64,000 bases of DNA, taken from the NCBI GenBank assembly GCA_963717005.1, contig OY970324.1, forward strand, positions 10,518 through 74,517, in the 5' to 3' direction. Shown here one piece after another: positions 21,956 through 40,332 of the stretch (position 1 is the stretch's first letter; every line of letters starts with the position of its first letter). A program made the position numbers and the translations under genes. The stretch is from an uncultured delta proteobacterium (GTDB lineage: Bacteria > Desulfobacterota > Binatia > Binatales > Binataceae). The notes under the pieces were generated by a model. That model was not told the origin of the DNA, searched no databases, and saw only the letters and a program-made list of their open reading frames with translations.

Positions 21956-22975
21956 CTAGGCTTTCTTCTCGATGTGTCCGCCGAATTCGTAGCGCATCGC
22001 GGACAGGAGCTTGTCGGCAAAGTCGGCCGCGCCGCGCGAATCGAAGCGTTCGTATAGCGCCGCCGTCAGCACGTGCGCGGGGACGCCTTCATCGATCGCC
22101 GCGTCAATCGTCCAGCGGCCCTCGCCCGAATCCGATACGCGTCCCGCAAACTTCTTCAGCTCCGGATCGCCCAGCAGCGCGTCGGCCGTCAGGTCCAGTA
22201 GCCACGACGCGATCACGCTGCCGCGCCGCCATACTTCGGCGATGTCGGTGAGATTGAAGTCGTACTGGTAGAGCTTGGGATTGCGCAGCGGCGTGGTCTC
22301 CGCATCGACGGTATGCGTCTGCTTGCCGACGTTGGCGTTCTTCAGGATGTTCATTCCTTCCGCATACGCCGCCATGATCCCGTATTCGATTCCGTTGTGA
22401 ACCATCTTCACGAAGTGCCCCGCGCCGTTCGGTCCGCAATGCAGATAGCCGTGCTCGGCGGTGCTGCCCTTGACCTTATCGCGGCCGGCAGTGCGCGGAG
22501 CGGAATCGATCGGCGGCGCGAGCGTCGCGAATAACGGATCGAGATGCTTGATCACCTGGGGCTCGCCGCCGATCATCTGGCAAAAACCGCGCTCGAGTCC
22601 CCATACGCCGCCGCTGGTGCCTGAATCGACGTAATGAATCCCCTTTGCCGCGAGCGCTTCGGCGCGCCGGATATCGTCGATGTAATACGAATTGCCGCCA
22701 TCGACGATGATGTCGTCGCGCTGGAACCGGCTCGACAGGTCCGCGACAGTCTGCTCGACGACGGCCGCCGGGACCATCATCCACGCTACGCGCGGCAGCT
22801 TGAGCTTGGCGGCGAAGTCGTCGAGCGACGACGCACCGATGACGCCCTTCTCTTTTGCCAATTCCTTGACCGCCGCGGCGCTAACGTCGAACACGACGCA
22901 CTCGTGACCGCCGCTGATCAGACGCCGCACCATGTTCGCACCCATTCTGCCCAGGCCGACCATTCCCATTTGCAT
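21956..22975 (-). CDS. gnd: 6-phosphogluconate dehydrogenase (decarboxylating), short YqeC-like form
   Basis: MQMGMVGLGRMGANMVRRL...HCGPNGAGHFVKMVHNGIEYG. Confidence 0.85.
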   Translation of the reverse strand: MQMGMVGLGRMGANMVRRLISGGHECVVFDVSAAAVKELAKEKGVIGASSLDDFAAKLKLPRVAWMMVPAAVVEQTVADLSSRFQRDDIIVDGGNSYYIDDIRRAEALAAKGIHYVDSGTSGGVWGLERGFCQMIGGEPQVIKHLDPLFATLAPPIDSAPRTAGRDKVKGSTAEHGYLHCGPNGAGHFVKMVHNGIEYGIMAAYAEGMNILKNANVGKQTHTVDAETTPLRNPKLYQYDFNLTDIAEVWRRGSVIASWLLDLTADALLGDPELKKFAGRVSDSGEGRWTIDAAIDEGVPAHVLTAALYERFDSRGAADFADKLLSAMRYEFGGHIEKKA

Positions 22976-23196
22976 TGCAGTTCGCTCCTTGTTGAACGCG
23001 AATCGTATTGAAACACTCTACCGCATCGCGGATGTTATGGCTTCCGCAAACACCATCACCTCCGCGATGGGCGGCAGGGGTGACCCCAGGGGTGACGCCT
23101 GTACCCAGTGTCTATGCGAAGACGCCTTCTTCTGCTCTCACTGACACCGCAATCGTGTGATAGCTTTCGTGTAACCGCCGAGGAGGAACGCGCCCA

Positions 23197-24132
23197 ATGC
23201 CCGAGAAGAAAGCCTGGACCGCCGATGACATCCCGGACCTTTCCGGCAAGACGATCATCATAACCGGCGGCAACAGCGGTATCGGCTACGAAGCCGCGTT
23301 GGAGTTCGCGCGCAAGCGAGCCGACGTGATCCTGGCCTGCCGCGATCTCGGCAAAGCGCGAACCGCAGCCGCGCAGATCACCGCGTCGGCGCCCGGAGCC
23401 AAGGTCGAGGTGATGGAACTCGATCTCTCGAATCTGGCGTCAGTGAGGGGTTTCTCCGACGCGTTTCATTTGCAGCATCAACTGCTGCACGTGCTGTGCA
23501 ACAACGCCGGGGTGATGGCGATTCCGTATCGGCAAACGGCGGACGGCTTCGAGATGCAATTCGGCACCAATCACCTCGGCCACTTCGCGCTGACCGGCCT
23601 GTTGCTCGATCGCCTGCTCGCCACCGACGGCGCGCGCGTGGTCAACGTCGCCAGCGGCGCGCATCGCATGGGCAAAATTCGGTTCGACGATCTGCAATGG
23701 AAGAACGGCTACCGCAAGTGGATGGCATACGGGCAGAGCAAGCTTGCCAACCTGCTGTTCACGCTCGAGTTGCAGCGCAAACTGGATGCGGCCGGCAAAA
23801 CCTTGTTGAGCGTCGCATGCCATCCCGGCTATGCGGCGACTAATCTGCAAGCCGCGGGACCTCGGATGCAGGGATCGTCGATGCTCGAATCTGTCTTCTC
23901 AGTCGCCAACAGCCTGTTCGCTCAAAGCGCCGCGATGGGCGCGCTGCCGACCGAATACGCGGCGGTCGCCTCCGACGTTCACGGCGGCGACTACATCGGC
24001 CCCGACGGGATGGCCGAGACGTGGGGGCATCCGGTCCGCGTCGGCCGCAGTGCGGCAGCGCAGGACGGTGCGGCGGCGTCGCGGCTGTGGGAAATTTCCG
24101 AGCAGCTCACGAACGTGCACTACGCGTTGTGA
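23197..24132 (+). CDS. SDR family oxidoreductase
   Basis: TIIITGGNSGIGYEAA (the TGxxxGxG motif) and NNAG. Confidence 0.85.
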   Translation: MPEKKAWTADDIPDLSGKTIIITGGNSGIGYEAALEFARKRADVILACRDLGKARTAAAQITASAPGAKVEVMELDLSNLASVRGFSDAFHLQHQLLHVLCNNAGVMAIPYRQTADGFEMQFGTNHLGHFALTGLLLDRLLATDGARVVNVASGAHRMGKIRFDDLQWKNGYRKWMAYGQSKLANLLFTLELQRKLDAAGKTLLSVACHPGYAATNLQAAGPRMQGSSMLESVFSVANSLFAQSAAMGALPTEYAAVASDVHGGDYIGPDGMAETWGHPVRVGRSAAAQDGAAASRLWEISEQLTNVHYAL

Positions 24133-24154
24133 GCGATTGATCTCGCGCCGGCGG

Positions 24155-25039
24155 CTACGATGTGCGCGCGATCACGAATTTCCCGATCTTGTCGATCGCC
24201 TGCTGACCCTCCGGCAGCAGCTTCGCGAAGACGTGCCAGACGTGGGGCATGTCGTCCCAGACTTCGAGTTCGACTTCGACGCCGGCCGCTTTCGCGCTTT
24301 TCGCCACGCGGGTTGAATCGTCCAGCAGAATTTCCGCGTCGCCTACATGAATCAGCATAGGCGGCAGTCCGCGAAAGTCCGCATGTACTGGCGACACCAG
24401 CGGATCCTTCGGATCGTGCGCGCCGTAATACTGTTTTGCTGAGTGCGCCAGATTCTCCTGCGTCACCATCACGTCTCGCGCGGCTCGCGTGCGCACCGAT
24501 TCCCCAGTGCCTTCGAGGTCCGTCCACGGTGAAATCGGAACGGCGCCCGCGGGCATCGGCAGCTTCGCGTCGCGAATCGCCAGCAACGCCGCAAGCGTGA
24601 GTCCTCCGCCAGCCGAATCGCCCGAAATAACAATCCTGCCGGGCTTGTAACCCTGCTCGAGCAGCCAGTTGTATGCGGCTATCGTGTCCTCGACCGCGGC
24701 GGGAAACGGGTGCTCAGGCGCGAGCCGATAATCCAGCGACAGCGCGCGTGCATTCGACGCGCGCGCGATTCTGGAGACCATCGCGCGATGCGTGTTGATA
24801 GAGCCCACCACGTAACCGCCGCCGTGCAGATACAGGATGACTCGATCCGCCGCCGCTCCGGGCGCCGCGATCCATTCCGCGTTGACCCCGCCCGCGCTGA
24901 CCTTCTCGCAAACCACGTCGGCCGGGACGCGCTCGCTAATCTTTTCCATCCCGGCGCGCCGCTGTTCCATCGAGGCGCTCGGATTCTGCGGCTGCGACTT
25001 AATCCGCTCGATTACTTTGTTCAGTTGCTCGCTCGCCAT
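24155..25039 (-). CDS. alpha/beta hydrolase fold-3 esterase/lipase (HSL family)
   Basis: HGGGYVVGS oxyanion motif and the GDSAGG nucleophile elbow. Confidence 0.8.
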   Translation of the reverse strand: MASEQLNKVIERIKSQPQNPSASMEQRRAGMEKISERVPADVVCEKVSAGGVNAEWIAAPGAAADRVILYLHGGGYVVGSINTHRAMVSRIARASNARALSLDYRLAPEHPFPAAVEDTIAAYNWLLEQGYKPGRIVISGDSAGGGLTLAALLAIRDAKLPMPAGAVPISPWTDLEGTGESVRTRAARDVMVTQENLAHSAKQYYGAHDPKDPLVSPVHADFRGLPPMLIHVGDAEILLDDSTRVAKSAKAAGVEVELEVWDDMPHVWHVFAKLLPEGQQAIDKIGKFVIARTS

Positions 25040-25135
25040 ATTCCCTCCGTCATCGATACGAAGTTACAGCGACGGCTATATCACGAAATGGCGGGCAATG
25101 GTCTGCGCGCGGAATAGGGAAATTCCCGCCGCTTG

Positions 25136-25654
25136 CTATGGACAACCCTTCGTAATTGAAAAGGTCACGTCCTGGAATATCGTCGCGCAGGCACCGACGA
25201 ACTCGACCGTTCCCATCAGCGCGGTGGCATCGCCGACGCCGATTCCGCTGACCAAACAGCCGACGCCCGCGTTGCCTTTGAATTTGAATCCGGTCGCGCT
25301 CACGGTGCCCTTCAGCGGTCCGCGCGCCATCGCCGAATCCGCCCATTGGAAGTTAAAAGTACTCCCAATGATAAGTTTCTTATGATTCGAATTCTGATGG
25401 AATTGGAACGTGGCAGCCCCCGTGCCATCGCCGGTGTCCACCACGTCACCCGACCAGCAACCCTTGATATTGAGCGATTGCACTTTAGCGTCGGGACTCG
25501 ATTGCGCGCTGTCGGCATCGGATGCACTCCAGGCGCCGAGGCTCGCGTCAGGTTCGCCAGCGTCCTGCGCGTACCCGCAGCGTGGGACGCCGAATATGAT
25601 AACCGAGAACAGGCCCGCACAGGCGAGGATTGCAACTGCCTTCGCCAATTTCAT
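25136..25654 (-). CDS. secreted hypothetical protein (signal peptide; 4 conserved Cys), paralog family member 1
   Basis: MKLAKAVAILACAGLFS...YAQDA...GCWSGDVVD...GTVSATGFKFKGNAGVGC... The start ATG has a GAGGA RBS. It lies in a lower-GC block. Confidence 0.55.
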   Translation of the reverse strand: MKLAKAVAILACAGLFSVIIFGVPRCGYAQDAGEPDASLGAWSASDADSAQSSPDAKVQSLNIKGCWSGDVVDTGDGTGAATFQFHQNSNHKKLIIGSTFNFQWADSAMARGPLKGTVSATGFKFKGNAGVGCLVSGIGVGDATALMGTVEFVGACATIFQDVTFSITKGCP

Positions 25655-25784
25655 CTCTGATTTTCCTCTTACAGCTTGTCGTAACATCAATAACCGAGCT
25701 TAATGACTAACAGTTATATCTAGTCTCTTCAAGCCAGTTCCAGAGGACAGAATGCGCTGATGCAGGCAATCGCGGCCACAAATG

Positions 25785-25821
25785 GAAGGGCCCGTCGCGC
25801 AGATCGCGCGACGGGCCCTTC
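25785..25821. terminator. perfect 16-bp GC hairpin (aagggcccgtcgcgc-agat-gcgcgacgggccctt) downstream of the minus-strand gene 25856..26383
   Basis: A palindromic stem seen directly. The flanking T-tract is weak, so terminator function is tentative. Confidence 0.35.
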
Positions 25822-25855
25822 ATGCTGTTCTATCGAGATTTCTGACGAATGGCCG

Positions 25856-26383
25856 TCAGCAGGTTTGTCCCGGCGAAACTGAAAATCGCACATGTTTGAA
25901 AAACTTAGCGCACTTTCCTCCGAACAGGATTTTCCCTGTCAGCTCCATGGAGTCACCCTTGCCGGTTCCCTGGAACGGACAACCCTTACCAGCATTTCCG
26001 TGGAATTGGATTCCCTGCGGACTCACAGTTCCCTGTATCGGGCCATACGCGAACGACGAATCGGGCCATTCCAGATCAATGCCACTGGCGCCGCCCCCCA
26101 CGATCTTCTTGCCGTTCTGCGTGAATCCGAAAAAGGCGTCGCCCAGTCCATCGGCTTTGTCCGTTACGCTGCCGTCCCAGCAACCGCCGATATCGATTGG
26201 AGGTTTCTTGGCGTCAGGACTGGCGGCTGTGTCCGCAGTGCCAGCGCCGGGTGCGCTCCAGGCCCCCGTGTCAGGAAGACTGTCTTCCGCGTCCTGCGCG
26301 TACGCGCGATGCGCCGAGCTCAGTACCCCCGTCGAGAGCAACGCCGCACAGGCAACTACTGCAAATGTCCTTACTATACTCAT
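25856..26383 (-). CDS. secreted hypothetical protein, paralog family member 2
   Basis: MSIVRTFAVVACAALLS...YAQDA...GCWDGSVTD...GTVSPQGIQFHGNAGKGC..., clearly homologous to 25136..25654. GGGAGGAG RBS. Confidence 0.55.
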   Translation of the reverse strand: MSIVRTFAVVACAALLSTGVLSSAHRAYAQDAEDSLPDTGAWSAPGAGTADTAASPDAKKPPIDIGGCWDGSVTDKADGLGDAFFGFTQNGKKIVGGGASGIDLEWPDSSFAYGPIQGTVSPQGIQFHGNAGKGCPFQGTGKGDSMELTGKILFGGKCAKFFKHVRFSVSPGQTC

Positions 26384-26579
26384 ATCTACTCCTCCCACCC
26401 TGGCTCGAATTAACACTAAAGATTACGCCATGTACTGTACTAATGCGTCTAGTTAAGTCAAGTTTTCGGCAACCTTGAGATGACTATTTTGCTCAAACCT
26501 TCCTAATTTTCCGAAATCGATCAACTCGCGCTTGGCAGAGGGCCTGCCGCTTGATCGCCCTTGAACTCAAGCAGTTCGC

Positions 26580-27161
26580 TTAGCAAATCTTTCGGTATTT
26601 TCCCTTTAGTTTCAGTTTGAGACCTTTGAAATTAGCTGTTCCCGCACCATCACAGCTGTTTGGTCCGGGGCCATGGAAATCAAAGCCGCCGATGAAAGTC
26701 ATCTGGGAGCCGAAGCTCTCGCACGTTGTACCGGAAAGGTCGAGCAGCTCGGCGTCTTTTGACCCCGTTACGAACAGTGCGCCATAGGTAGGTGCACACC
26801 CGCCATCCGGGTCGCCAGCGAAGTCGCCAAAGTCCACGGTTAGGTCAAGTCCGACATTCCCCGATGGAGCCTTGCCGAACGCCGTGCCGGAACCTGATCC
26901 ATCAAATTCGAAGCAGGTGCATGAAAAAAAGCATTGATCAGCGAAGTCATCAGGACACGGACCGGAAAAGCTGTTCAACTGTTGCAACTTGAAGTTGGCG
27001 GTGTAGGCGCTCACCCCAGCCACGTCAGGCACGGCCTGTTCAGATTCCTGGCCCCAGTTGAAGGCCGGTTTCGCGCTCTTATTCCAGCTCTGCGCCCAGG
27101 CAGAGCCAGCGAACAGAAGTGTTGGCAGAATCGCAATTAGCAACGTTTTCTTGAATTTCAT
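26580..27161 (-). CDS. secreted Cys-rich hypothetical protein (signal peptide MKFKKTLLIAILPTLLFAGSAWA)
   Basis: An ORF with an N-terminal signal peptide and 8 Cys. It is the third secreted small protein in the same low-GC block. Confidence 0.5.
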   Translation of the reverse strand: MKFKKTLLIAILPTLLFAGSAWAQSWNKSAKPAFNWGQESEQAVPDVAGVSAYTANFKLQQLNSFSGPCPDDFADQCFFSCTCFEFDGSGSGTAFGKAPSGNVGLDLTVDFGDFAGDPDGGCAPTYGALFVTGSKDAELLDLSGTTCESFGSQMTFIGGFDFHGPGPNSCDGAGTANFKGLKLKLKGKYRKIC

Positions 27162-27303
27162 CTTTCATTTGCTCCTCAACTTGGATGGCTCAAAGCAGAG
27201 ATTGCTTAAAACTCCCGCAGTAATATGCGTAATGAATGGGGCTATATCAAGTCTCAACAGGCTCGACTGATTTTTTTGGGTTCGCGACCGGACGGCTGGC
27301 TCA

Positions 27304-28293
27304 TCAGGTTGCCCGCGGCGGGAGACCCGCCGCGCGATAGACGTCGTCGATCACTCTCATGTTGATAACTCCCTCGGCGCCGTCGGTGGGAAATTTGGCT
27401 TCGCCGCGCACGGCCTTGATGAACGCGCGCAACTGATGGGTGAAGGTCGTGTCGCCCGGCACCGTTTCGGTCTCTTCTCCGGCGGCCGTCTTTACGATGA
27501 GCTGATGACCGCGATGAGGCGCGATTGGATTTGTCACGCGCAGTTCTCCGCGCTCGCCGCGCGCTATGAACGTCGCGCTGATTACCGAATCCTTCTTCAT
27601 CGCGCAGGTCATCTTCGCCGTCGCGCCGCCTGCCAGTTCGAGATCGACATCCATCGCGATATCGATGTTCCTGGGCCCGGTCTCGGCCTTCGCGCGGACC
27701 ACGCCGGGCGTCAGTCCGGAAAAATAGCGAATCATGTGCAACGGGTAGCATCCCAAGTCCATCGTGGCGCCGCCGGCGAGACTCCAATCGAAACGGATGT
27801 TGGTTTCCGGAATCGGCACCGAAAAGTGACCCTCGACCTGAACCAGGCGGCCAAGCGTCCCGTCGGTCATCAGCGCGCGGACACGATCGGCGAGCGGATG
27901 GTAGCGATAGTGAAACGCTTCGCCGAGAATTTTCCCGGTCTCATCCGCCGCTCGCGCCATTCGCTCCGCCTCGACCGCGTTGGAAGCGAGCGGCTTTTCG
28001 CATAGCACGTGCTTGCCCGCGCGCAGCGCCGCGATCGTCCACTCGCAATGCAGCGAGTTCGGCAGCGGATTGTAAATCACGTCGAGCGCGGGATCGTTGA
28101 CGAGGTCAGCGTAGCTCGCGAGCACGCGCGGAATAGCGTGGGCGTCGGCGAACTCGCGCGCACGCTTCGGATCGCGCGCCGCAACCGCGACGACTTCGGC
28201 TTCCGGCACGTTTTGCGCCGCCTTGATCAATGCGTCCGGCGCAATTCGCGCCGCGCCGAGTATTCCGAATCGAAGTGGGTGTTGTTCTGTCAT
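27304..28293 (-). CDS. Gfo/Idh/MocA family NAD(P)-dependent oxidoreductase
   Basis: LRFGILGAARIAPDALIKAA...EKPLA, a Rossmann N-terminus. Confidence 0.85.
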   Translation of the reverse strand: MTEQHPLRFGILGAARIAPDALIKAAQNVPEAEVVAVAARDPKRAREFADAHAIPRVLASYADLVNDPALDVIYNPLPNSLHCEWTIAALRAGKHVLCEKPLASNAVEAERMARAADETGKILGEAFHYRYHPLADRVRALMTDGTLGRLVQVEGHFSVPIPETNIRFDWSLAGGATMDLGCYPLHMIRYFSGLTPGVVRAKAETGPRNIDIAMDVDLELAGGATAKMTCAMKKDSVISATFIARGERGELRVTNPIAPHRGHQLIVKTAAGEETETVPGDTTFTHQLRAFIKAVRGEAKFPTDGAEGVINMRVIDDVYRAAGLPPRAT

Positions 28294-28307
28294 GGCGTTT
28301 ACTACCT

Positions 28308-29180
28308 CTATCGGTCTGGTGTCCGCTCGACCACCGACTGCGACGCCTTTGCCGTCGCCATCTTGTATCCGTTAGCCGCATCCATCCGCGCGAGCGCGTA
28401 GCGGTACGGCTCGTTCGAGATTGTGACGACGCCCTGGTAAGGATGCGCCAGTTCCAGAATCGCGAGAATCGTCATGCCGAGCAGGATTGAAAAGAATCCG
28501 CACATCAGCACCTGCGCGCGAAAAACGCTGCTGCCAAAAAAATAGCTGAACCCGATCGTCATCAGGCAGCCAAGATAGATCACCGTCCAAACCACCGAAG
28601 GCAAATCTTCTTCGTAGAAGTTAAACCGCTCGGCGCGCGCCTGGCTGACAAGGTTGAGCTGATCGATCGACTTGTCCATCAACATTTGTTCGCGGCTGTC
28701 GGTGGGGTGATCCGCGAGCACCGTGGCCCACAGCTCGTGAGCGCCCACCTTTCCGCCGTGAAAGGTGTTGTCGGCCATCTGCGGCCATTCTTTTTCGACC
28801 ACCCGGTGTGAGTATTCGAGCACCGCCGAATCGAGCTGGGAGCGCATCGGTTCGGAGAATGCAGCACCGAGTTTGTAGAGGCTCTCGAGCGCCGTCGCTT
28901 CCGTAAGCGCGTAGGCATTGGCGTCGTTGAAGCGCTCCCACGCGGCGACGATAACAAAGGCAAGGACCAGGCCGTAAAAGGCGCCGAGCACTCCGAACGT
29001 CACCCCCGCAACTTCGTGGTTCTTCTGCAGCCGGTCGAGCGGAACCAGCCATCTTACAAGGCAGAGACCGGCGATACTGCCGCCGCCGAATATCACGACG
29101 ACGAATATGACCTGAGCAGCGGGGCGCCAGTAGAGCAGGAAATCCATTTGTCGAAGTCCCTCCCGAGCGACTTGCACCAT
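28308..29180 (-). CDS. membrane protein, DUF4239-like (bestrophin-like) family
   Basis: The start is taken at the internal MVQVAREGLRQMDFLLYW. There are TM helices at both ends. The upstream Arg-rich part of the tool ORF is discarded. Confidence 0.45.
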   Translation of the reverse strand: MVQVAREGLRQMDFLLYWRPAAQVIFVVVIFGGGSIAGLCLVRWLVPLDRLQKNHEVAGVTFGVLGAFYGLVLAFVIVAAWERFNDANAYALTEATALESLYKLGAAFSEPMRSQLDSAVLEYSHRVVEKEWPQMADNTFHGGKVGAHELWATVLADHPTDSREQMLMDKSIDQLNLVSQARAERFNFYEEDLPSVVWTVIYLGCLMTIGFSYFFGSSVFRAQVLMCGFFSILLGMTILAILELAHPYQGVVTISNEPYRYALARMDAANGYKMATAKASQSVVERTPDR

Positions 29181-33403: not shown

Positions 33404-34954
33404 ATGAGCGCGACCATCTCAATCCGTCAGGGCAAACTCGAAGGTGACGAGCAGGGCGGACTTTTCGTCTTCAAAGGAATTCCGTTTGCCGCGCCGCCCG
33501 TCGGTGCGCTCCGATGGCTCCCGCCCGCGAAGCCCGCCGCGTGGAACGGTGTCCGCGACGCTCGCCGCTTCGGCGCCGTCGCGCATCAGAACCGCGTGAT
33601 GCTCACCGCGCTCTCCGCGATGGTGGTTGACGGCGAACAGTCCGAGGATTGCCTCTCGCTCAATGTCTGGACCCCCGCACTCGACGGCAAGCGCCGCCCG
33701 GTGATGGTCTGGATTCACGGCGGCGCCTTCACCATCGGCTCGGGTTCGCAGTCGCTCTACGACGGCTCGGTTCTCTCGCGTCGCGGCGACGTGGTCGTGG
33801 TTACGGTCAACTACCGGCTCGGGCCACTGGGCTACCTGCGCCTCGCCGACGTGACCGGCGGCAGGATTCCGTCATCCGGCCTCGAGGGGATGCTCGATCA
33901 AGTCGCGGCGCTCCAATGGGTGCGCGACAATATCGCCGAGTTCGGCGGCGACCCCGGCAACGTCACTATCTTCGGCGAATCCGCCGGCGGCATGAGCGTC
34001 GGCACGCTGCTCGCGATGCCCTCGGCGCGCGGCCTCTTCCACAAAGCGATACCGCAAAGCGGCGCCTGTCACACCGGCGCGCCGGTCGAGCGCGCGAATC
34101 GAACCGCCGAGCGAGTGTTATCCAGGCTCGGCGTGAACCCCGGCGATGCCGCCGCGCTCCGCGCGCTGACCCCGGCGCAATTGCTGACCGGCACAATGCT
34201 CGCCGACGGCAAGACGCCCGATCCCGAACTCGGGATGGCGTATCAGCCGTGCATCGACGGTGTCCACGTGCCGCGCGCCGCGATCGAGATGGTCGCGAAC
34301 GGCTCGGCGTCTGGCGTGGCCGTGATGGTCGGCTCGACGCTCGAAGAATGGAAATTGTTCTCGCTGATGGACCCGTCGTTGCACAAGCTCGATCGCGCCG
34401 GCCTCGGCGCGCGCATGAGCCGCCGCCTGACGGCCGCAGCAGCCGACGCGCTGATCGGTTCATACGAACAGGCGCGCGGCGCGCGTGGTGAATCAGTGAC
34501 GCCCGCCGATTTATTCACCGCAATCGAGACCGACCGCGTTTTCCGCATCCCGGGCGTGCGCCTCGCGCAAGTCCAGCCGCGCCACGACCACGACGCGCGC
34601 GTTTACAGCTACCTTTTTACCTGGCCGTCGCCCGCGATGGGCGGCGTGCTCGGCTCGTGCCACGCACTCGAGCTGGGCTTCGTCTTCGGCACCAATCACA
34701 TGCCCGGCATGGCCGCATTCGCAGGCAGCGGCCCCGCCGCGGAAAAATTGGCAACCCAGATGCAAGACGCGTGGCTCGCCTTCGCCCGCTCCGGCGATCC
34801 GAGCAACGAGAGCACCGGCACGTGGAGGCGTTACGACGAAGCACATCGCTCAACGATGGTCTTCGGCGCAAACACCAAGCTCGAGGACGCCCCGCGCGAC
34901 CAAGAGCGCCGCGCCTGGGACGCCGTCGAAGATCGCATCTTCGGCTCGCTCTAG
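33404..34954 (+). CDS. carboxylesterase type B (para-nitrobenzyl esterase-like)
   Basis: GIPFAAPP, EDCLSLNVWTP, HGGAF, and the GESAGG nucleophile motif. Confidence 0.85.
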   Translation: MSATISIRQGKLEGDEQGGLFVFKGIPFAAPPVGALRWLPPAKPAAWNGVRDARRFGAVAHQNRVMLTALSAMVVDGEQSEDCLSLNVWTPALDGKRRPVMVWIHGGAFTIGSGSQSLYDGSVLSRRGDVVVVTVNYRLGPLGYLRLADVTGGRIPSSGLEGMLDQVAALQWVRDNIAEFGGDPGNVTIFGESAGGMSVGTLLAMPSARGLFHKAIPQSGACHTGAPVERANRTAERVLSRLGVNPGDAAALRALTPAQLLTGTMLADGKTPDPELGMAYQPCIDGVHVPRAAIEMVANGSASGVAVMVGSTLEEWKLFSLMDPSLHKLDRAGLGARMSRRLTAAAADALIGSYEQARGARGESVTPADLFTAIETDRVFRIPGVRLAQVQPRHDHDARVYSYLFTWPSPAMGGVLGSCHALELGFVFGTNHMPGMAAFAGSGPAAEKLATQMQDAWLAFARSGDPSNESTGTWRRYDEAHRSTMVFGANTKLEDAPRDQERRAWDAVEDRIFGSL

Positions 34955-35125
34955 GCGAGTCCTATCTCCTTTTGGAGCCAGCCGTCCGCCTGTGGCGGGT
35001 CGGAATGTACTTTCCTACTGTAGTGGTATATTGTAGTGCTGGTTCAGTCCGCTCAGATGACCCAAACAATGGAAACGTGATATTGAGACTTGGTGTGTCC
35101 GTGAGGGGAGAGTTATCCGCGCTTC

Positions 35126-35446
35126 TTGGCAATTCTGGCAACCACGTTCGCGACTATCTGGAAGCGATCGGACCATTGGTACGATCATCAAACGGAATTT
35201 CCAGAGATCGCAGATGAATTCGAATATGAACGTCGGGCTGCTGAATTTTTGAATGCTCCGCTCGGTCCAACAATGGTGGAAGGCATACGAAGTAGCGATG
35301 GTGAGACAATTCGATACGATCAAGCGACGCAAAATTTCGCGGTAATGCGAGAGGACGGGATCATTCGCACGTTTTTCAGACCAACCAAGAGTTGGCATGG
35401 TTTAAACAGCAATTTGGAGTATTTCCAACAGGTATGTGCAAAATGA
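35126..35446 (+). CDS. hypothetical small protein (candidate toxin-like domain) in a low-GC island
   Basis: A TTG-start ORF. Its stop overlaps the next gene's ATG (ATGA). An alternative upstream frame (35005..35217) also looks protein-like, so the boundaries are uncertain. Confidence 0.3.
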   Translation: MAILATTFATIWKRSDHWYDHQTEFPEIADEFEYERRAAEFLNAPLGPTMVEGIRSSDGETIRYDQATQNFAVMREDGIIRTFFRPTKSWHGLNSNLEYFQQVCAK

Positions 35447-35742
35447 AGAAATACTATTGCCCCGTATGCGGCTATGATCAGCTTGACGAACCGCCTGCTA
35501 ATCAGAGCATTTGCTCCTGTTGCGGCACCCATTTCGGCTATCACGATGTCGGCCATGCTTGGGCCGAATTACGGGAAACCTGGCTCCTAAGGGGCGCTCC
35601 TTGGTTTAGCCGAGCCGTTTCACCGCCCGCTGGATGGAGCGCATTTGAACAATTGCAACAGCTATTGGACATGGAAGATTTACGAGTTACCGCTGACACC
35701 GACATGACCACGGTCTCAATAAAGCGTCCCGTCGCGGCTTAG
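35443..35742 (+). CDS. Cys-rich CPCC-family zinc-ribbon protein
   Basis: MKKYYCPVCGYDQLDEPP...ICSCCGTHFGYHD, two CxxC pairs in the CPCC pattern. Translationally coupled to the upstream ORF. Confidence 0.5.
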   Translation: MKKYYCPVCGYDQLDEPPANQSICSCCGTHFGYHDVGHAWAELRETWLLRGAPWFSRAVSPPAGWSAFEQLQQLLDMEDLRVTADTDMTTVSIKRPVAA

Positions 35743-35754
35743 GGCCGTCATCTG

Positions 35755-36183
35755 ATGCCGAAGTTATTGCTCTTCGCGCCGTGCGAAAAAGTGCTAGTAG
35801 ACCAGCAAACTCATACGGTCTCGTTGATTATGCTCTTGCAGGAGATTCACTACAAAGTGCCGCCAGGGATTCAGATTCAACCAAACGCTCTGCTACCGAT
35901 GAATTGGTCGGTGATCAGCATTTGGCAAGAAGAGGAACCACAGGACGCAGGAGTTGAATTTGAGCAGCGGCTAGTGCTCGAAAATAGCGCTGGAACGACT
36001 TTGGTAGCCAACGAAGTGAAGTGGAAATTTGAGAAACCATCCCATCGCATCGTCGGCAATGTTCCAGGAATACCCATAGGGTCTCGCAGACTGATGCTTA
36101 AGCTGTCCTATCGCGTCGCGATGTCTCGCGATTGGCATGAGATCGCATCGTTTCCGCTAGAGCTGATGCAAGACGTACTTTGA
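35755..36183 (+). CDS. hypothetical protein (142 aa), unrecognised
   Basis: A clean ORF, the third gene of the low-GC cassette. Confidence 0.4.
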   Translation: MPKLLLFAPCEKVLVDQQTHTVSLIMLLQEIHYKVPPGIQIQPNALLPMNWSVISIWQEEEPQDAGVEFEQRLVLENSAGTTLVANEVKWKFEKPSHRIVGNVPGIPIGSRRLMLKLSYRVAMSRDWHEIASFPLELMQDVL

Positions 36184-36222
36184 CGAGACGAAGGTATGCC
36201 GTATCACGCGGCCGCGCGCGTG

Positions 36223-39200
36223 CTACTCCAGCGATAAATCGACCCGCGTGGTCTTGCCTTGATCCTTGATTCCGCTGGCGTCGAGCTTGGGCGCGATGAT
36301 GAACATCCGCGCCGCATCGACCTGCTTGCTGCTCAGATACGCGCGCACCGCATTCGCGCGCGCGTCCGCGAGATTCTTCAGGTTCTGATCGCTCACCGGC
36401 GTGTTATCCAGGATTAGCTTCTTCATCTGGTCCGGCGGTATCGTCTTCGCGAATCCAATCGCGTCGCGCGGCTTCTTGAAATCCCCCGCGCTATAGACCT
36501 TCGCCAGATACTTGTTGTAGTCGGCCGTCGATAGCGGCTCGCTCTTCGCCTTCGCCTCCGCGCTGTCGCCCTCGGCCCTGCGCCGCAGCACCTGGATACT
36601 GTGATCCAGCGACGCTTCCTTGTAGCCCGCAGTGTCGAACTTGGGATCGACGCGTCCCTCGATGTTCAATTTCAACGCCGGCCGCGCCGCCAGCGCCTTC
36701 GCCACCGTATCAAGCTTCTGCTGACTCTCCGGCGCCAGCGTCGAATAGCCCGGCGCGAACTCGATGTAGGCGAGATCCTGCGGTGCTCCACTGCCGGTAA
36801 CGCTGCCGAAGGCGGACGCTAGCAGCGAGAACGGCGCGGTTGCCGCCTTGACGATCAGATTCATGAACGCGCCGAGGATAACGCTGCCGATACTGAACTG
36901 CGGATCCGACAGCGACCCCGATATCGGGATTCGCACGTCGATTTCCCCCTTCGAATTCTTGAGCAGCGAGACCGCCAGCCGAATCGGCAGGTTGGTCGCG
37001 TCGGGACTGTCCACGTGATCGCCGAAGGTCAGCTGATCGATGAAGATGTGGTTTTCGGCGGTCAGCTTGCCGGTGTCGAGCAGGTAATGAACGTCAACCG
37101 TGAGCGTGCCTTTGACGATCGGGTAGCCGGTGTACTTGGTCGTGTACGGCGAAAGCCCGGTAAGCTCGACTCCGTCCGCCTTCGCCTTGATATCGACGAA
37201 CGCAGTTGGCGCGAGCGGATTTATCGATCCATCGATATTGAGCGGCGCGCTGCCATTGATTTTCCCGTCAAGCGAAACAGGCGCGGGCGTCGTGGACTTC
37301 GTCCCAAACGCGCCGACGCTGCCCTCCATGTCGGTCATGTTCGCCGTGTAATTCGGCTTGATAAAATTGTCGGTGTAATCGACCTTGCCGCCCTTGAGCG
37401 TGATTTTGCTGAGCTCAACGTCGGCGTTTATCGGCTGTCCCTGGTAGGGTTGCGCGGGACTGGCCTCCGCGGCCGGGCTGGCTCCAGGAGCCGTCGCCGC
37501 TGCCACGCTCGGCGCGGATGCCGGAGTCGGCGTCGAGCTCGGCGCGACTGGAACGGCGCCCTTCGATCCCGGCTCTCCGGTCGCGCGCGTCAACGAGGTC
37601 GGCGCTTCCTGCGGGCTCGCCGTGATGTCCTTCAGATTCAGCTTGCCGTTGCTGTTGAGAATGATCCGCGAATAAAAATCGTTCAACGCGATCAATCCCA
37701 CGTGCACTTTCGGCGGACCCTTGCCGATCGCGAAGTCGATCCGATTCACGTTGAGCGCGGCCATCTTGAAGAACAAATCGTTGGTCAGCTTGTCGAGCAT
37801 CCGCACGCTACCGAGCGCTGCGTCGCCCTTGTAGCTGACGACAAAATCCTTGCGCTCCTGCGCCAGGCCGACCGCGCCGTCCATCGTCAGGTTCGCGCTC
37901 GTGATCGTCGCGTTCAGCCTGCTGCTCACGTACGGATCGGCGAACGTCAGGTCCAGGCGTTTGGTCGCGACCCGCAGATCGGCCTTGAGCGGCGCAATCG
38001 CGGCGCTGCCGGTGACTTTGAAAGTGCCTCTGCGATTCAGCGTGCCGTCGAGGTCAATTCCAAATGGTTTCGCGAAGTCGCTGGTCACATCCTTTAGATG
38101 CAGATTGAGCGGCGCGACAGCCACGGTGACCGGCTTCGGCGCGGTCTCGTCAACGAAGGTCGCGTCCGTTTGATCGAGCGATACCGACGCTACCTGGAAT
38201 TGAAAACTCGGCGAGGCCGGCGCCGGCGGCGCCGCGGGCTTTACCGGTTTGCGCTCGACCCGCCTGCGCTCGCGCGCCCTTCGCCGCGACTCGCGCGCGC
38301 TGGCACGCTCGGCGCGCGGCGGCGGCTCGCTGCCGCGCATCAGCGACAGCAGACTCAACTTCCCGTCGCGCCGGCGACGCACAAACAGGTGCATCCCGTC
38401 GCCTTTCACTTCGGTTATCGTCGCATTGCGCGACGCCAGGTCGAACTGTCCGATCGCGACGCTGAAATTTTTCCACTGCACCGGCTTTTCTTTTTCGTGC
38501 GGCGCATCGACTTCGAAATTCGCGATCGCCACGCTCGCGGGCTCGGCATGCACGTTAAAGTGATCGCTCGCGAAATGCGTTTGCACGGTGGCTTTCGCGC
38601 TGAATTTGCCCGACGCCACCGTCGCCGCCAGAAATTTCTGCGCGAACGGCTGCAACCCCGGCAAATCGATCTCGTCGACCGCCACCTCGGTGGTAACCTG
38701 CGACTGCGCGAGATCCAGCGCGCCCTGGACCACGAGCGCGCCGCCGCTGTGAACGTTGGTGGTCAGGTAAAACGTCGCCGGCGAATTCCCGAGCGTGCGC
38801 AGATTCTTTACTCCCACCTCCAGCGCGTCGAGCGCATCCGTCGCGGGCGTCGCTCCGCTGTTATCCTGCAGGCTCACTCCGCTCTTCGTCAGCACGAACG
38901 AATCCAGCCGAAAATCCATCGGCGGCTTGGCCGTCACGGGCCCCGCGACCGGCACCGCCGGTTGCACCACATTGCCGGCCGGCGTTGGCGCTGCCGCCGC
39001 GGTACTCGCCGCCGCCGGCGCTGACGCCGGAGTATTCGCTGCCGGCCCGGGACTTCCACTCGCCAGCGACGAAAGATTGTTGGTGCCGTCGGCGTTCAGG
39101 CGCATGCTCGCCAGCAATCCATCGACCCAAATCGATCGCACATGGAACACCGAGTTAAGCGGCTCAACGTCGGTCAGCTTCACCTCGGCATGCTTGATCG

Positions 39201-40197
39201 CGACGACCGGCGCGTTCGCAGTGTCGCGCACATCGAGCTGATCGAGCGCCAGCGTTCCGTTCAGCCGAATCAGCGGCTGCGTCGGCGCCTGCACGAAATG
39301 CACGTACACATCCGCCGACAGCGCCCCGCTCGGAATCTCCACCGGCAGCTTCACCGGCACGTAGCTGAGGTAGCGCGGAAGATCGAGGCGATGCAGTCGG
39401 AGGTCAACCACCGAGTCGCGCGTCGCCTGGAACGGCTTGGCCACGCCCGCAATCCGGAGCGGACTGCCGTCGATCACCATTTGGACCAGCGGCTGCACGA
39501 ACACGTCCACGTCGGCGGGCAGGTTCGCGATGAACGGCACGTCGATCTGAATCTTCTCGATCTTGTGCCGCTTGCCGAGCACCTGATCGTCGATCGTCAC
39601 TTCGCCGTCGTTCAGTTGAATATTGGAAACCGCGAATTTCATCGGCGCGCTCGGCGCCGCCGGTTTCGGCTTCGCGGGCGCGGGCGCGCTCTCGAGCAAA
39701 TCGGAGAAATTAAATTTCTGCGCCGATTCCCTCACCACATGGATCCGCGGTTTCTCGATTACGACTTCGCCGACCACCGGCGCCAATCTGAACAGCGAGG
39801 TCCACGAAACCTTCACCGTCAGATGCCCGAGATCGACGAACGGCTTCTGCGGATCGTCGCGCTCGCCAACGTGCAGTTGGTCGAGATCGAGCTTCAGCCG
39901 GTAAAGATTGAAGCGAATTTTGCCGACGCTCACCTGGCGATGGATGCTGCCGGCGACCGGGCCGGTCAGCACGTGGCGCAATATGGGAGGAACCGCGATA
40001 TAGGTCGCGAGTCCGAGGAACAGCACGACCGTGAGCACGATCACACCGATTTTGCGCACGCGCCGCGAACGGCCGATCTCCTGCGCGCGCGCGACCCACG
40101 GCTTGCTCGGATGAAACGCGGCGCGCAAGTGTCCGATCGCGTTTTTTGTGGACTCTTTCGCTCTATTAAAAAAGCCCGCCATATCGCCCGCACTCAT
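36223..40197 (-). CDS. AsmA/DUF748-family giant envelope protein (TamB-like)
   Basis: An N-terminal TM anchor, a long beta-rich body with Ala/Pro linkers, and a C-terminal DUF748-like region (PQFSIGSVILGAFMNLIVKAATAPFSLLASAFG). Confidence 0.65.
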   Translation of the reverse strand: MSAGDMAGFFNRAKESTKNAIGHLRAAFHPSKPWVARAQEIGRSRRVRKIGVIVLTVVLFLGLATYIAVPPILRHVLTGPVAGSIHRQVSVGKIRFNLYRLKLDLDQLHVGERDDPQKPFVDLGHLTVKVSWTSLFRLAPVVGEVVIEKPRIHVVRESAQKFNFSDLLESAPAPAKPKPAAPSAPMKFAVSNIQLNDGEVTIDDQVLGKRHKIEKIQIDVPFIANLPADVDVFVQPLVQMVIDGSPLRIAGVAKPFQATRDSVVDLRLHRLDLPRYLSYVPVKLPVEIPSGALSADVYVHFVQAPTQPLIRLNGTLALDQLDVRDTANAPVVAIKHAEVKLTDVEPLNSVFHVRSIWVDGLLASMRLNADGTNNLSSLASGSPGPAANTPASAPAAASTAAAAPTPAGNVVQPAVPVAGPVTAKPPMDFRLDSFVLTKSGVSLQDNSGATPATDALDALEVGVKNLRTLGNSPATFYLTTNVHSGGALVVQGALDLAQSQVTTEVAVDEIDLPGLQPFAQKFLAATVASGKFSAKATVQTHFASDHFNVHAEPASVAIANFEVDAPHEKEKPVQWKNFSVAIGQFDLASRNATITEVKGDGMHLFVRRRRDGKLSLLSLMRGSEPPPRAERASARESRRRARERRRVERKPVKPAAPPAPASPSFQFQVASVSLDQTDATFVDETAPKPVTVAVAPLNLHLKDVTSDFAKPFGIDLDGTLNRRGTFKVTGSAAIAPLKADLRVATKRLDLTFADPYVSSRLNATITSANLTMDGAVGLAQERKDFVVSYKGDAALGSVRMLDKLTNDLFFKMAALNVNRIDFAIGKGPPKVHVGLIALNDFYSRIILNSNGKLNLKDITASPQEAPTSLTRATGEPGSKGAVPVAPSSTPTPASAPSVAAATAPGASPAAEASPAQPYQGQPINADVELSKITLKGGKVDYTDNFIKPNYTANMTDMEGSVGAFGTKSTTPAPVSLDGKINGSAPLNIDGSINPLAPTAFVDIKAKADGVELTGLSPYTTKYTGYPIVKGTLTVDVHYLLDTGKLTAENHIFIDQLTFGDHVDSPDATNLPIRLAVSLLKNSKGEIDVRIPISGSLSDPQFSIGSVILGAFMNLIVKAATAPFSLLASAFGSVTGSGAPQDLAYIEFAPGYSTLAPESQQKLDTVAKALAARPALKLNIEGRVDPKFDTAGYKEASLDHSIQVLRRRAEGDSAEAKAKSEPLSTADYNKYLAKVYSAGDFKKPRDAIGFAKTIPPDQMKKLILDNTPVSDQNLKNLADARANAVRAYLSSKQVDAARMFIIAPKLDASGIKDQGKTTRVDLSLE

Positions 40198-40332
40198 CGC
40201 CAACGCCCGCAATCAGGAAGGCGACATCGGAGCCGCTCTCGCCAGATACTGGGTCGAGGGGTCACCCCTCGCGACGCCAGCGTGAGCCGTCGCCAGCGAA
40301 TAGTCAATTGGTCGCGGATACTTTAGATGTAG

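Follow-up and report, generated by a model that had tools for sequence, protein, structure and literature searches.

Eight-stranded β-barrels have been described in the bacterial avidins (streptavidin, shwanavidin, bradavidin and agroavidin; PF01382), in the calycin or lipocalin-like proteins (lipocalins, nitrobindin/THAP4, YceI and Calycin_like, PF13944), at the C-terminus of hemophilin and of the neisserial surface lipoproteins NHBA, fHbp, TbpB and HpuA, in the outer-membrane barrels OmpA, OmpX, OmpW and PagL, and in the designed proteins b10, BB1 and mFAP (PDB 6czj, 6d0t and 6ohh). Here these systems are compared with the predicted products of three small genes, termed A, B and C, that lie next to each other on the minus strand of a 64,000-nucleotide (nt) stretch of contig OY970324.1 (positions 10,518 to 74,517; the whole stretch is referred to as the window) from an uncultured delta proteobacterium of the Binataceae. 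A and B stem from an old tandem duplication. A/B and C form two unannotated, Binatia-restricted families that appear to be new at the sequence level. The interpretation we moderately favour is that these proteins are Sec-exported, disulfide-bonded soluble barrels, private to Binatia, that bind a small ligand or glycan. Its structural and evolutionary part is proposed with high confidence, and its ligand-binding part, drawn by analogy, is tentative and somewhat more apt to be wrong than right. Binatus, the candidate genus from which the window comes, is placed in Candidatus Binatota. This uncultured, widespread soil phylum is known from metagenomes alone, and Binatia are credited with methylotrophy and alkane degradation (PMC8262859).

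A, B and C are real, separately translated genes. For A and B this follows from ratios of non-synonymous to synonymous divergence (dN/dS) of 0.2–0.4 and from more than 160 homologs with invariant Cys, Trp and Gly positions. The three open reading frames (ORFs) listed by the initial annotation of the window, which had been made from the letters alone, were recovered at the same coordinates (Table 1). A and B align over their full length with 44% identity (E 5e-45), and the pairwise alignment contains all the elements that had been quoted for the two paralogs, namely YAQDA, GCW.G.V.D, GTVS..G..F.GNAG.GC and the four Cys. The description of C as a different protein with eight Cys was equally borne out, C displaying no similarity to A by BLASTP or by profile-profile comparison. 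A common origin of A/B and C was rejected, as the profile-profile comparison aligned the signal peptides only (probability 15%). A longer form of A that initiates at a TTG codon at 25690 (184 amino acids, aa) was also discarded on account of in-frame stops or ATG loss upstream in orthologs.

The families had been termed unrecognised, and they remain so: A, B and C have no match in Pfam (E <= 10), NCBIfam, PADLOC or PHROGs, with E cutoffs of 1–10 across the four libraries, a Pfam scan of 61 diverse A/B members gave scattered chance matches only, and the A/B and C profiles gave only chance matches among PDB sequences (E >= 0.2). The A/B family comprises 167 proteins among 5.8 billion in a word-seeded search and 112 clusters (50% identity, E <= 1e-3) when 1.84 billion representatives were scanned exhaustively with HMMER, a count that includes a few spurious large repeat proteins. 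The 850–3245 aa matches of the representative search are adhesin, lectin or PKD proteins in which a stretch of 27–60 residues is matched repeatedly, and were discarded as artefacts of low complexity. In all, family C numbers 17 proteins. A scan of one genome per GTDB species, with 13 A-type sequences as query, recovered 15 loci, all of which belong to Binatus or to metagenome-assembled genomes (MAGs) of 'uncultured delta proteobacterium' from soil. Similarly, the named A/B homologs are assigned to 'Candidatus Binatus sp.' or 'Candidatus Binataceae bacterium', bar two MAG contigs labelled Acidoferrales; one of these shows exact Binatus synteny and the other carries the member P0165.

Predicted structure of the A/B and C proteins

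The AlphaFold2 model of A was built on an alignment of 113 sequences. Residues 60–172 are modelled as eight β-strands, helix-free by DSSP, with predicted local distance difference test (pLDDT) values above 94, and residues 1–55, which cover the signal peptide and the acidic linker, are modelled with low confidence. The mature domain had initially been given as about 150 aa; this size suits the mature chain (~145 aa), but the folded part is only ~110 aa, the rest being acidic linker. The strands are 6–10 residues long and the loops are short at both ends of the modelled barrel. The domain is thus predicted to be a minimal eight-stranded meander barrel that is presumably soluble. One face of the strands is conserved in the A/B family (mean entropy 0.52) and is composed of 28% aromatic, 32% aliphatic and 33% Gly residues, whereas the variable face (entropy 1.69) is 70% polar or charged. 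Since the conserved face is hydrophobic and the variable face polar, A and B are expected to be water-soluble proteins with a packed core rather than membrane barrels. The core would be formed by conserved aromatics alternating with glycines, with a calycin-like Gly-Cys-Trp-x-Gly motif in strand 1.

The GCWxG motif and residues C66, C133, C156 and C171 are invariant across the 113 homologs. The strand order of the model positions C66 beside C171 and C133 beside C156, and in four distant members both C66 and C171 are missing but C133 and C156 are retained. Both observations point to disulfides C66-C171 and C133-C156, of which the former would join the first and last strands and the latter would staple strand 6 to the loop between strands 7 and 8. 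The conserved residues of A that do not belong to the core, D73, D76, W104, D106, N128-A129-G130 and F160, should lie in loops at one end of the modelled barrel. The linker that precedes the barrel has an invariant W42, with G40 and K57 almost so.

The N-termini of A, B and C display a Lys/Arg n-region and a hydrophobic core of 17–18 residues followed by AYA/QDA (A and B) or AWA/QSW (C), and in the A/B homologs K5, L15/L16, Y28, A29, Q30 and D31 are conserved. These features argue for Sec-type signal peptides, with export and the cleavage site being predicted, and agree with the earlier description of the products as secreted, Cys-containing proteins. Anchoring of A as a lipoprotein through Cys12 was rejected, because this residue lies within the hydrophobic core, just 11 residues from the start; 13 of the 113 close members have another residue there, the distant subfamilies lack this Cys, and no family-wide lipobox is found. 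The predicted mature forms of A, B and C all start with Gln (25565–25567, 26294–26296 and 27090–27092, minus strand). Q30 is conserved in 111 of the 113 A/B homologs, and an N-terminal Gln would permit pyroglutamate formation.

Structure comparison of A gave the highest scores with de novo designed soluble eight-stranded barrels (10.6–10.9), the A domain of quinohemoprotein amine dehydrogenase (10.7) and Cap15 (10.0), followed by the eight-stranded outer-membrane barrels (9–9.8), the avidins (7.2–8.6), the neisserial NHBA/TbpB/fHbp barrels and hemophilin (7–8) and YceI (6.4–6.8). Identity to the matched structures is mostly 6–17%, reaching 20% for bradavidin. The 50 Foldseek matches listed, three of them at E <= 0.001, are all soluble proteins. 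The designed mFAP and b10 barrels rank at the top, with template modelling (TM) scores of 0.67–0.74 relative to the target, and are followed by shwanavidin, lipocalins and nitrobindin.

None of these likenesses extends to family membership. The designed barrels, with which the retro-aldolase 8ah9 may be grouped, are 10–17% identical to A and share no evolutionary kinship with it; unlike A, they are devoid of a signal peptide, disulfides or an acidic N-terminal tail. The avidins have the same type of eight-stranded barrel as A, but A/B have no match to the Avidin family at E <= 10 and none among PDB sequences, their Cys pattern is different and the biotin-contact residues of avidins cannot be aligned to A. 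The calycin and lipocalin-like proteins share with A both the eight-stranded meander barrel and the G-x-W of strand 1, and Foldseek matched RBP, ApoM, ApoD, nitrobindin and Rv2717c to A with probabilities of 0.8–1.0 and TM scores of 0.3–0.45. In contrast to the A model, which is smaller, lipocalins have an N-terminal 3-10 helix and a C-terminal α-helix packed on the barrel. No lipocalin or lipocalin-like Pfam family was matched apart from a lone chance-level match to PF13944 in one of the 61 members scanned (E 0.04). The neisserial proteins and hemophilin carry C-terminal barrels structurally comparable to A, but those are Slam-exported lipoproteins or multi-domain proteins, whereas A and B are single-domain proteins without a usable family-level lipobox. 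Cap15, in which a minimal β-barrel comes after hydrophobic N-terminal helices, is an effector of cyclic-oligonucleotide-based antiphage signalling systems (CBASS). A and B do not reside in a CBASS operon, their neighbours being Gfo/Idh/MocA, Abhydrolase_3, SDR and 6PGD genes, and they have no PADLOC match. Neither the Greek-key β-sandwich with a His/Cys/His/Met copper site nor a match to the Copper-bind Pfam family, the marks of a cupredoxin, was found in A/B. A/B are therefore of the calycin/avidin type in fold class only and lie outside those families by membership tests; the initial annotation had named lipocalins and cupredoxins as examples of known families whose confident match would overturn its proposal, and no such match was obtained.

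A metagenomic protein of 273 aa, P0222, matches the A/B family weakly (E 4.7e-5) and displays an A/B-barrel-like N-terminal domain joined to a plastocyanin/azurin-like C-terminal domain (PF00127; 20.3 bits, gathering score 21.2). The fusion, a single case, may hint at a redox or copper context.

Protein C has eight Cys in its mature part, of which six are family-invariant and two subgroup-specific. It is predicted to fold as an eight-stranded barrel like that of allene oxide cyclase (AOC) and dirigent proteins. C resembles the AOC-barrel, dirigent and DUF3224-like proteins in fold, but no sequence relation to them was found in Pfam, NCBIfam or PDB sequences, and C is distinguished by its Cys set and its signal peptide. 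Elsewhere, members of the C family are standalone and occur near Flp/Tad genes or near Tat/GH15/ars genes.

Chromosomal slot and evolution of A, B and C

The comparison covers 23 related loci that extend across the site (L001–L006, L008–L021 and L023–L025). In 22 of them a family gene is located directly upstream (~55–180 nt) of the Abhydrolase_3 gene and on the same strand; the exception is L021, with a longer gap and with A divided between two ORFs. Beyond Abhydrolase_3 there is an SDR gene on the opposite strand and then, where the locus extends far enough, 6PGD. One or more of Gfo/Idh/MocA, a Bestrophin-like gene and a gene for a large hybrid histidine kinase lie upstream of the slot. The content of the slot itself varies. 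It holds C, B and A in the window and in L001–L004 and L016, C and one B-like copy in L005 and L006, B and A in L008, L017, L020 and L023–L025, A and a divergent copy in L010 and L019, A only in L009, L011–L015 and L018, and the split A only in L021. Clustering resolves an A clade, always adjacent to the esterase and found in nearly all Binatus loci, a B clade, whose members are 56–78% identical across L001, L008, L017, L020 and L023, and a few divergent extra copies. Because the A and B clades separate across these species, the A/B duplication is older than the species themselves.

In two loci A appears broken: it occupies two ORFs in L021 (6090–6853) and is matched over its N-terminal two-thirds only in L020 (6001–6576). 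These copies are pseudogenes or assembly errors and, if real, would be consistent with ongoing loss at the slot.

Identity to the window proteins is mostly 85–96% for the flanking genes and falls to 45–78% for A, 37–78% for B and 28–61% for C. Against the nearest relative, L008, dN is 0.12–0.14 for A and B and 0.02–0.04 for the neighbours aligned over their full length, with dN/dS of 0.30 and 0.06–0.11, respectively, and the same contrast is observed in five other genomes. Overall, dN of A/B is 4–6 times the flanking-gene value, and dN/dS amounts to 0.2–0.4 as opposed to 0.05–0.17. Thus A and B are under purifying selection yet evolve several-fold faster than their neighbours, in keeping with the earlier view of a rapidly evolving family. 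In the region 21956–29147 of the window, synonymous divergence (dS) of A is also raised, at 1.2–2.9 times the flanking-gene values for five out of six genome pairs; with L001, for instance, it is 1.22 against 0.42–0.58. B displays the same excess against L008, L001 and L017; in L009 and L012, which have no B, the B comparison falls on the A gene. A weaker constraint on codons or on GC at third codon positions (GC3), or an exchange of old alleles at the slot, are possible causes of this excess.

The base composition of the block is distinctive. At 0.55, the GC content of 25100–27300 is the minimum among 2.2-kb windows of the 64 kb (mean 0.617, sd 0.021), as the initial annotation had perceived, and GC3 is 0.69 in A, 0.62 in B and 0.60 in C compared with 0.75–0.81 in the neighbours. 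Low GC3 is, however, common to the orthologs of A, being found in 13 of 14 loci with data (0.58–0.72 against 0.68–0.83; A of L015 is at 0.76), and is therefore not a mark of recent import. Around the block there are no flanking direct repeats, mobile-element genes or nearby tRNA, the nearest tRNA being at 43.8 kb.

Distant A/B subfamilies in Binataceae include a tandem pair between PMT_2 glycosyltransferases and an amino-acid permease, and other distant members adjoin GIY-YIG, SDR and Abhydrolase_1 genes. No partner gene travels with the A/B or C family, and no immunity, transporter, secretion or processing genes were found at this locus or at the four other kinds of locus examined that hold family members.

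Possible roles of the predicted exported barrels

According to the interpretation we prefer, A and B would enter the Sec pathway and probably be cleaved after AYA, leaving an N-terminal Gln on a flexible acidic tail of ~30 residues with an invariant Gly-x-Trp, followed by a soluble up-and-down barrel of eight strands and ~110 residues. C, an unrelated eight-Cys protein, would form an AOC/dirigent-like barrel. A/B (and C) would reside in the periplasm or outside the cell and bind a small ligand or glycan, in A/B at the barrel end where D73, D76, W104, D106, N128 and F160 would cluster, leaving the polar outer surface of the barrel free to diverge. The fixed slot upstream of the esterase gene in Binatus is the site at which copies duplicate, get lost and diverge fast. 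By analogy with other soluble eight-stranded barrels (avidins, calycins and nitrobindins), binding of a small molecule or glycan is taken as the likeliest function; the earlier suggestion of a binding protein is compatible with the predicted calycin/avidin-like barrels.

Several points weigh against this interpretation. The A/B core is apparently tightly packed with aromatics, such that an internal pocket may be absent, and the cavity, the sides of the strand faces and the placement of the Asp/Trp cluster were all deduced from the strand order of the model. Since the fold is very generic and identity is ~10–17%, the structural matches carry little information on function. For C, the model reaches only moderate confidence, with a mean pLDDT of 71 on 16 sequences. 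The signal peptides were judged by eye. Gene presence, paralogy, restricted distribution, synteny, rapid evolution under purifying selection and the folds as predicted are directly shown; export, the site of cleavage, the pairing of disulfides, solubility, ligand binding and the end at which it would occur are inferred.

A more specific version of ligand binding, to which we give little credence, takes A/B and, independently, C as Binatia-specific secreted sequestering proteins, functional analogues of the bacterial avidins. The disulfide-locked barrel would take up a cofactor, metal or signalling molecule in short supply, with the conserved Asp/Asp/Asp/Asn/Trp/Phe end as the site of capture, with a vitamin, pyrroloquinoline quinone (PQQ), a lanthanide or other cation or a metabolite of a competitor as candidate ligands, and the invariant Gly-x-Trp of the tail might close the barrel as a lid or plug. 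On this view, the rapid divergence of the surface and the changes in copy number would result from competition in soil. A/B, and perhaps C, could instead be periplasmic inhibitor or decoy barrels similar to the lysozyme inhibitors MliC/PliC or the protease inhibitors Inh/AprI, whose variable surface would track the hostile enzymes of competitors or predators and so account for both the fast evolution and the copy-number change. Small, exported, disulfide-bonded eight-stranded barrels with a conserved core and a highly variable polar surface would suit such a role, as would the high dN relative to neighbours, the tandem duplication and loss at one slot and the lack of an enzyme-like or operon partner, and we regard the proposal as rather unlikely. 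For C a catalytic role is suggested by its structural neighbours, which include pyocyanin demethylase, Diels-Alderases and allene oxide cyclase; C would then be an enzyme or dirigent-like catalyst that acts on an extracellular small molecule, and A/B unrelated neighbours. The same neighbours also include non-catalytic dirigent proteins, and the fold also serves pure binding proteins. Identity to those structures is 5–16% with no sequence-level relation, the model is itself of moderate confidence and no biosynthetic gene cluster lies nearby, which together leave catalysis by C improbable.

The fold similarity of A extends to the eight-stranded outer-membrane barrels, and A/B might therefore be miniature integral barrels of the OmpX, OmpW or PagL type. 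The pattern of the strand faces is the reverse of that expected from an outer-membrane protein, the hydrophobic face being the conserved one, with one-third Gly, and the polar face the variable one. The barrel is also small for this purpose, neither its strands nor the loops at its two ends being long, the conserved Cys pairs point to disulfides, the C-terminus reads ...SITPGC-x and is deprived of the aromatic β-signal, and no membrane protein is present among the listed Foldseek matches. A membrane location is thus considered very unlikely. The initial annotation had proposed that the block was acquired and that its products might be adhesins or bacteriocin-like, which would make of it a recently imported island for a secreted toxin, bacteriocin or effector set. 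Its GC content, low GC3 and AT-rich intergenic regions, together with the lineage restriction of two unannotated families, are what such an island would display. The slot, however, is the same in 22 of 23 loci (L021 with its split A), between flanks that are mostly 85–96% identical, the low GC3 is shared by the orthologs, and each of the two clades, A and B, is orthologous from one species to the next. The block is accompanied by no integrase, tRNA, flanking repeats, immunity or transporter genes, no PADLOC or PHROG match was found, and the loci of distant members similarly lack linked immunity, transporter or secretion genes. Recent acquisition is largely refuted for A/B; the presence of C is patchy. 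The island proposal as a whole is highly improbable, and the adhesin and bacteriocin-like suggestions are not supported.

If the preferred interpretation of exported, ligand-binding barrels is true, Binatia hold two private families of exported mini-barrels that are absent from databases. Structurally, the natural A/B domain comes closest to computationally designed barrels, and from this likeness it might offer a compact disulfide-stabilised scaffold; another possible use of the A/B family is as a marker of the Binatus lineage. The locus provides a clean case of turnover among small secreted genes at a fixed slot, by duplication, divergence and loss, amid near-constant neighbours. The families combine novelty at the sequence level with a very familiar structural kind, and nothing here upsets existing ideas. 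Since secreted hypothetical proteins that are confined to one lineage and adopt a generic barrel fold are common, the value of the finding is descriptive unless a ligand is found.

Expression signals and other features of the window

The block is bordered by ordinary enzyme genes, GFO_IDH_MocA and Abhydrolase_3, in accordance with the unrelated housekeeping neighbours noted initially. The strong ribosome-binding sites (RBSs) that had been reported are present as GAGG-type motifs 7–10 nt before the ATG of each of A, B and C. The AT-rich promoters fared less well: the intergenic regions are indeed AT-rich (GC 0.47–0.55 across the block), but sigma-70-like hexamers upstream of B and C are not enriched (3 against 1.4 +/- 1.3 in shuffles). 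Of the hairpins attributed to all three genes, that of B was recovered, whereas the regions 3' of A and C contain no hairpin beyond chance (fold z = -1.44 and +0.65). The B hairpin was rejected as a repeated element, given its single occurrence in the window and the lack of repetition in 35 loci. An Rfam scan returned no family at threshold, the best match being the B hairpin (27.8 bits against a gathering score of 95).

The non-coding blocks upstream of A are common to 12 aligned orthologous loci and include GGCTTG(C/A)A and GGTTATTGA(T/C)G, the second ~30 nt from the ATG. They may constitute a promoter or operator, and no known motif was assigned to them. A further block, upstream of the esterase gene, is nearly invariant in nine of ten aligned Binatus loci amid variable intergenic DNA, and is missing from L005. 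It looks like an esterase promoter and resembles an extended -10 element (TGATATAGC). Co-transcription of A with the esterase is not favoured, as this promoter-like block is kept between them in nine of the ten loci. The conserved blocks upstream of A and the promoter-like block of the esterase itself suggest that the two genes are likely separate transcription units.

Table 1. Positions in the window of the three genes, their flanks, predicted protein regions and non-coding elements, and of the second low-GC block. Signal peptides are as read from the sequence.
Feature	Position	Strand	Description
Gene A	25136..25654	-	172 aa; core member of the A/B family; copy adjoining Abhydrolase_3; P0002 in the public protein collection
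Gene B	25856..26383	-	175 aa; older tandem paralog of A; retained in some genomes only
Gene C	26580..27161	-	193 aa; eight-Cys protein unrelated to A/B; 17-member family
GFO_IDH_MocA oxidoreductase gene	27304..28293		Flanks the C side of the block
Abhydrolase_3 esterase gene	24155..25039		Flanks the A side of the block
Signal peptide of A (predicted)	25568..25654	-	Residues 1–29, MKLAK...GYA/QDA
Linker of mature A	25478..25567	-	Residues 30–59; acidic; pLDDT < 50
β-barrel domain of A (predicted)	25139..25477	-	Residues 60–172; eight strands; GCWxG in first strand; Cys 66/133/156/171
Signal peptide of C (predicted)	27093..27161	-	Residues 1–23, MKFKK...AWA/QSW; A23 invariant in family alignment
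B-A intergenic region	25655..25855	-	GC 0.51; carries the RBS of A (AAGAGGAAA) and conserved non-coding blocks, e.g. GGTTATTGATG at 25685–25695
Conserved blocks upstream of A	25685–25760	-	Putative promoter or operator
Hairpin 3' of B	25785–25821	-	Perfect 16-bp stem; fold energy -48.6 kcal/mol, z = -5.55; terminator-like, without a clear U-tract
C-B intergenic region	26384..26579	-	GC 0.47; GGAGG 7 nt from the ATG of B; sigma-70-like site 26434–26461, match not above chance
Gfo-C intergenic region	27162..27303	-	GC 0.47; GAGGAG 10 nt from the ATG of C; sigma-70-like site 27222–27250, match not above chance
Conserved block upstream of Abhydrolase_3	25065–25088	-	24 nt, TTTCGTGATATAGCCGTCGCTGTA; 3' end 25 nt from the Abhydrolase_3 ATG; putative promoter
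Second low-GC block	34950–36220		2.2-kb GC 0.552
Carboxylesterase gene	33443..34954	+	Borders the second block
AsmA-like gene	36223..40212	-	1329 aa; borders the second block
Small ORF in second block	35126..35446		Match (E 9e-9) to the C-terminal end of phrog_15528, a 'portal protein' family of PHROGs; no Pfam match
Small ORF in second block	35392..35742		CPxCG...CxxCG, zinc-ribbon-like; no Pfam match
Small ORF in second block	35755..36183		No Pfam match

A second low-GC block, with three small ORFs, is present in the window between the carboxylesterase and AsmA-like genes. In L005 and L006 these two genes are only 65 nt apart, and the block therefore looks like an insertion.

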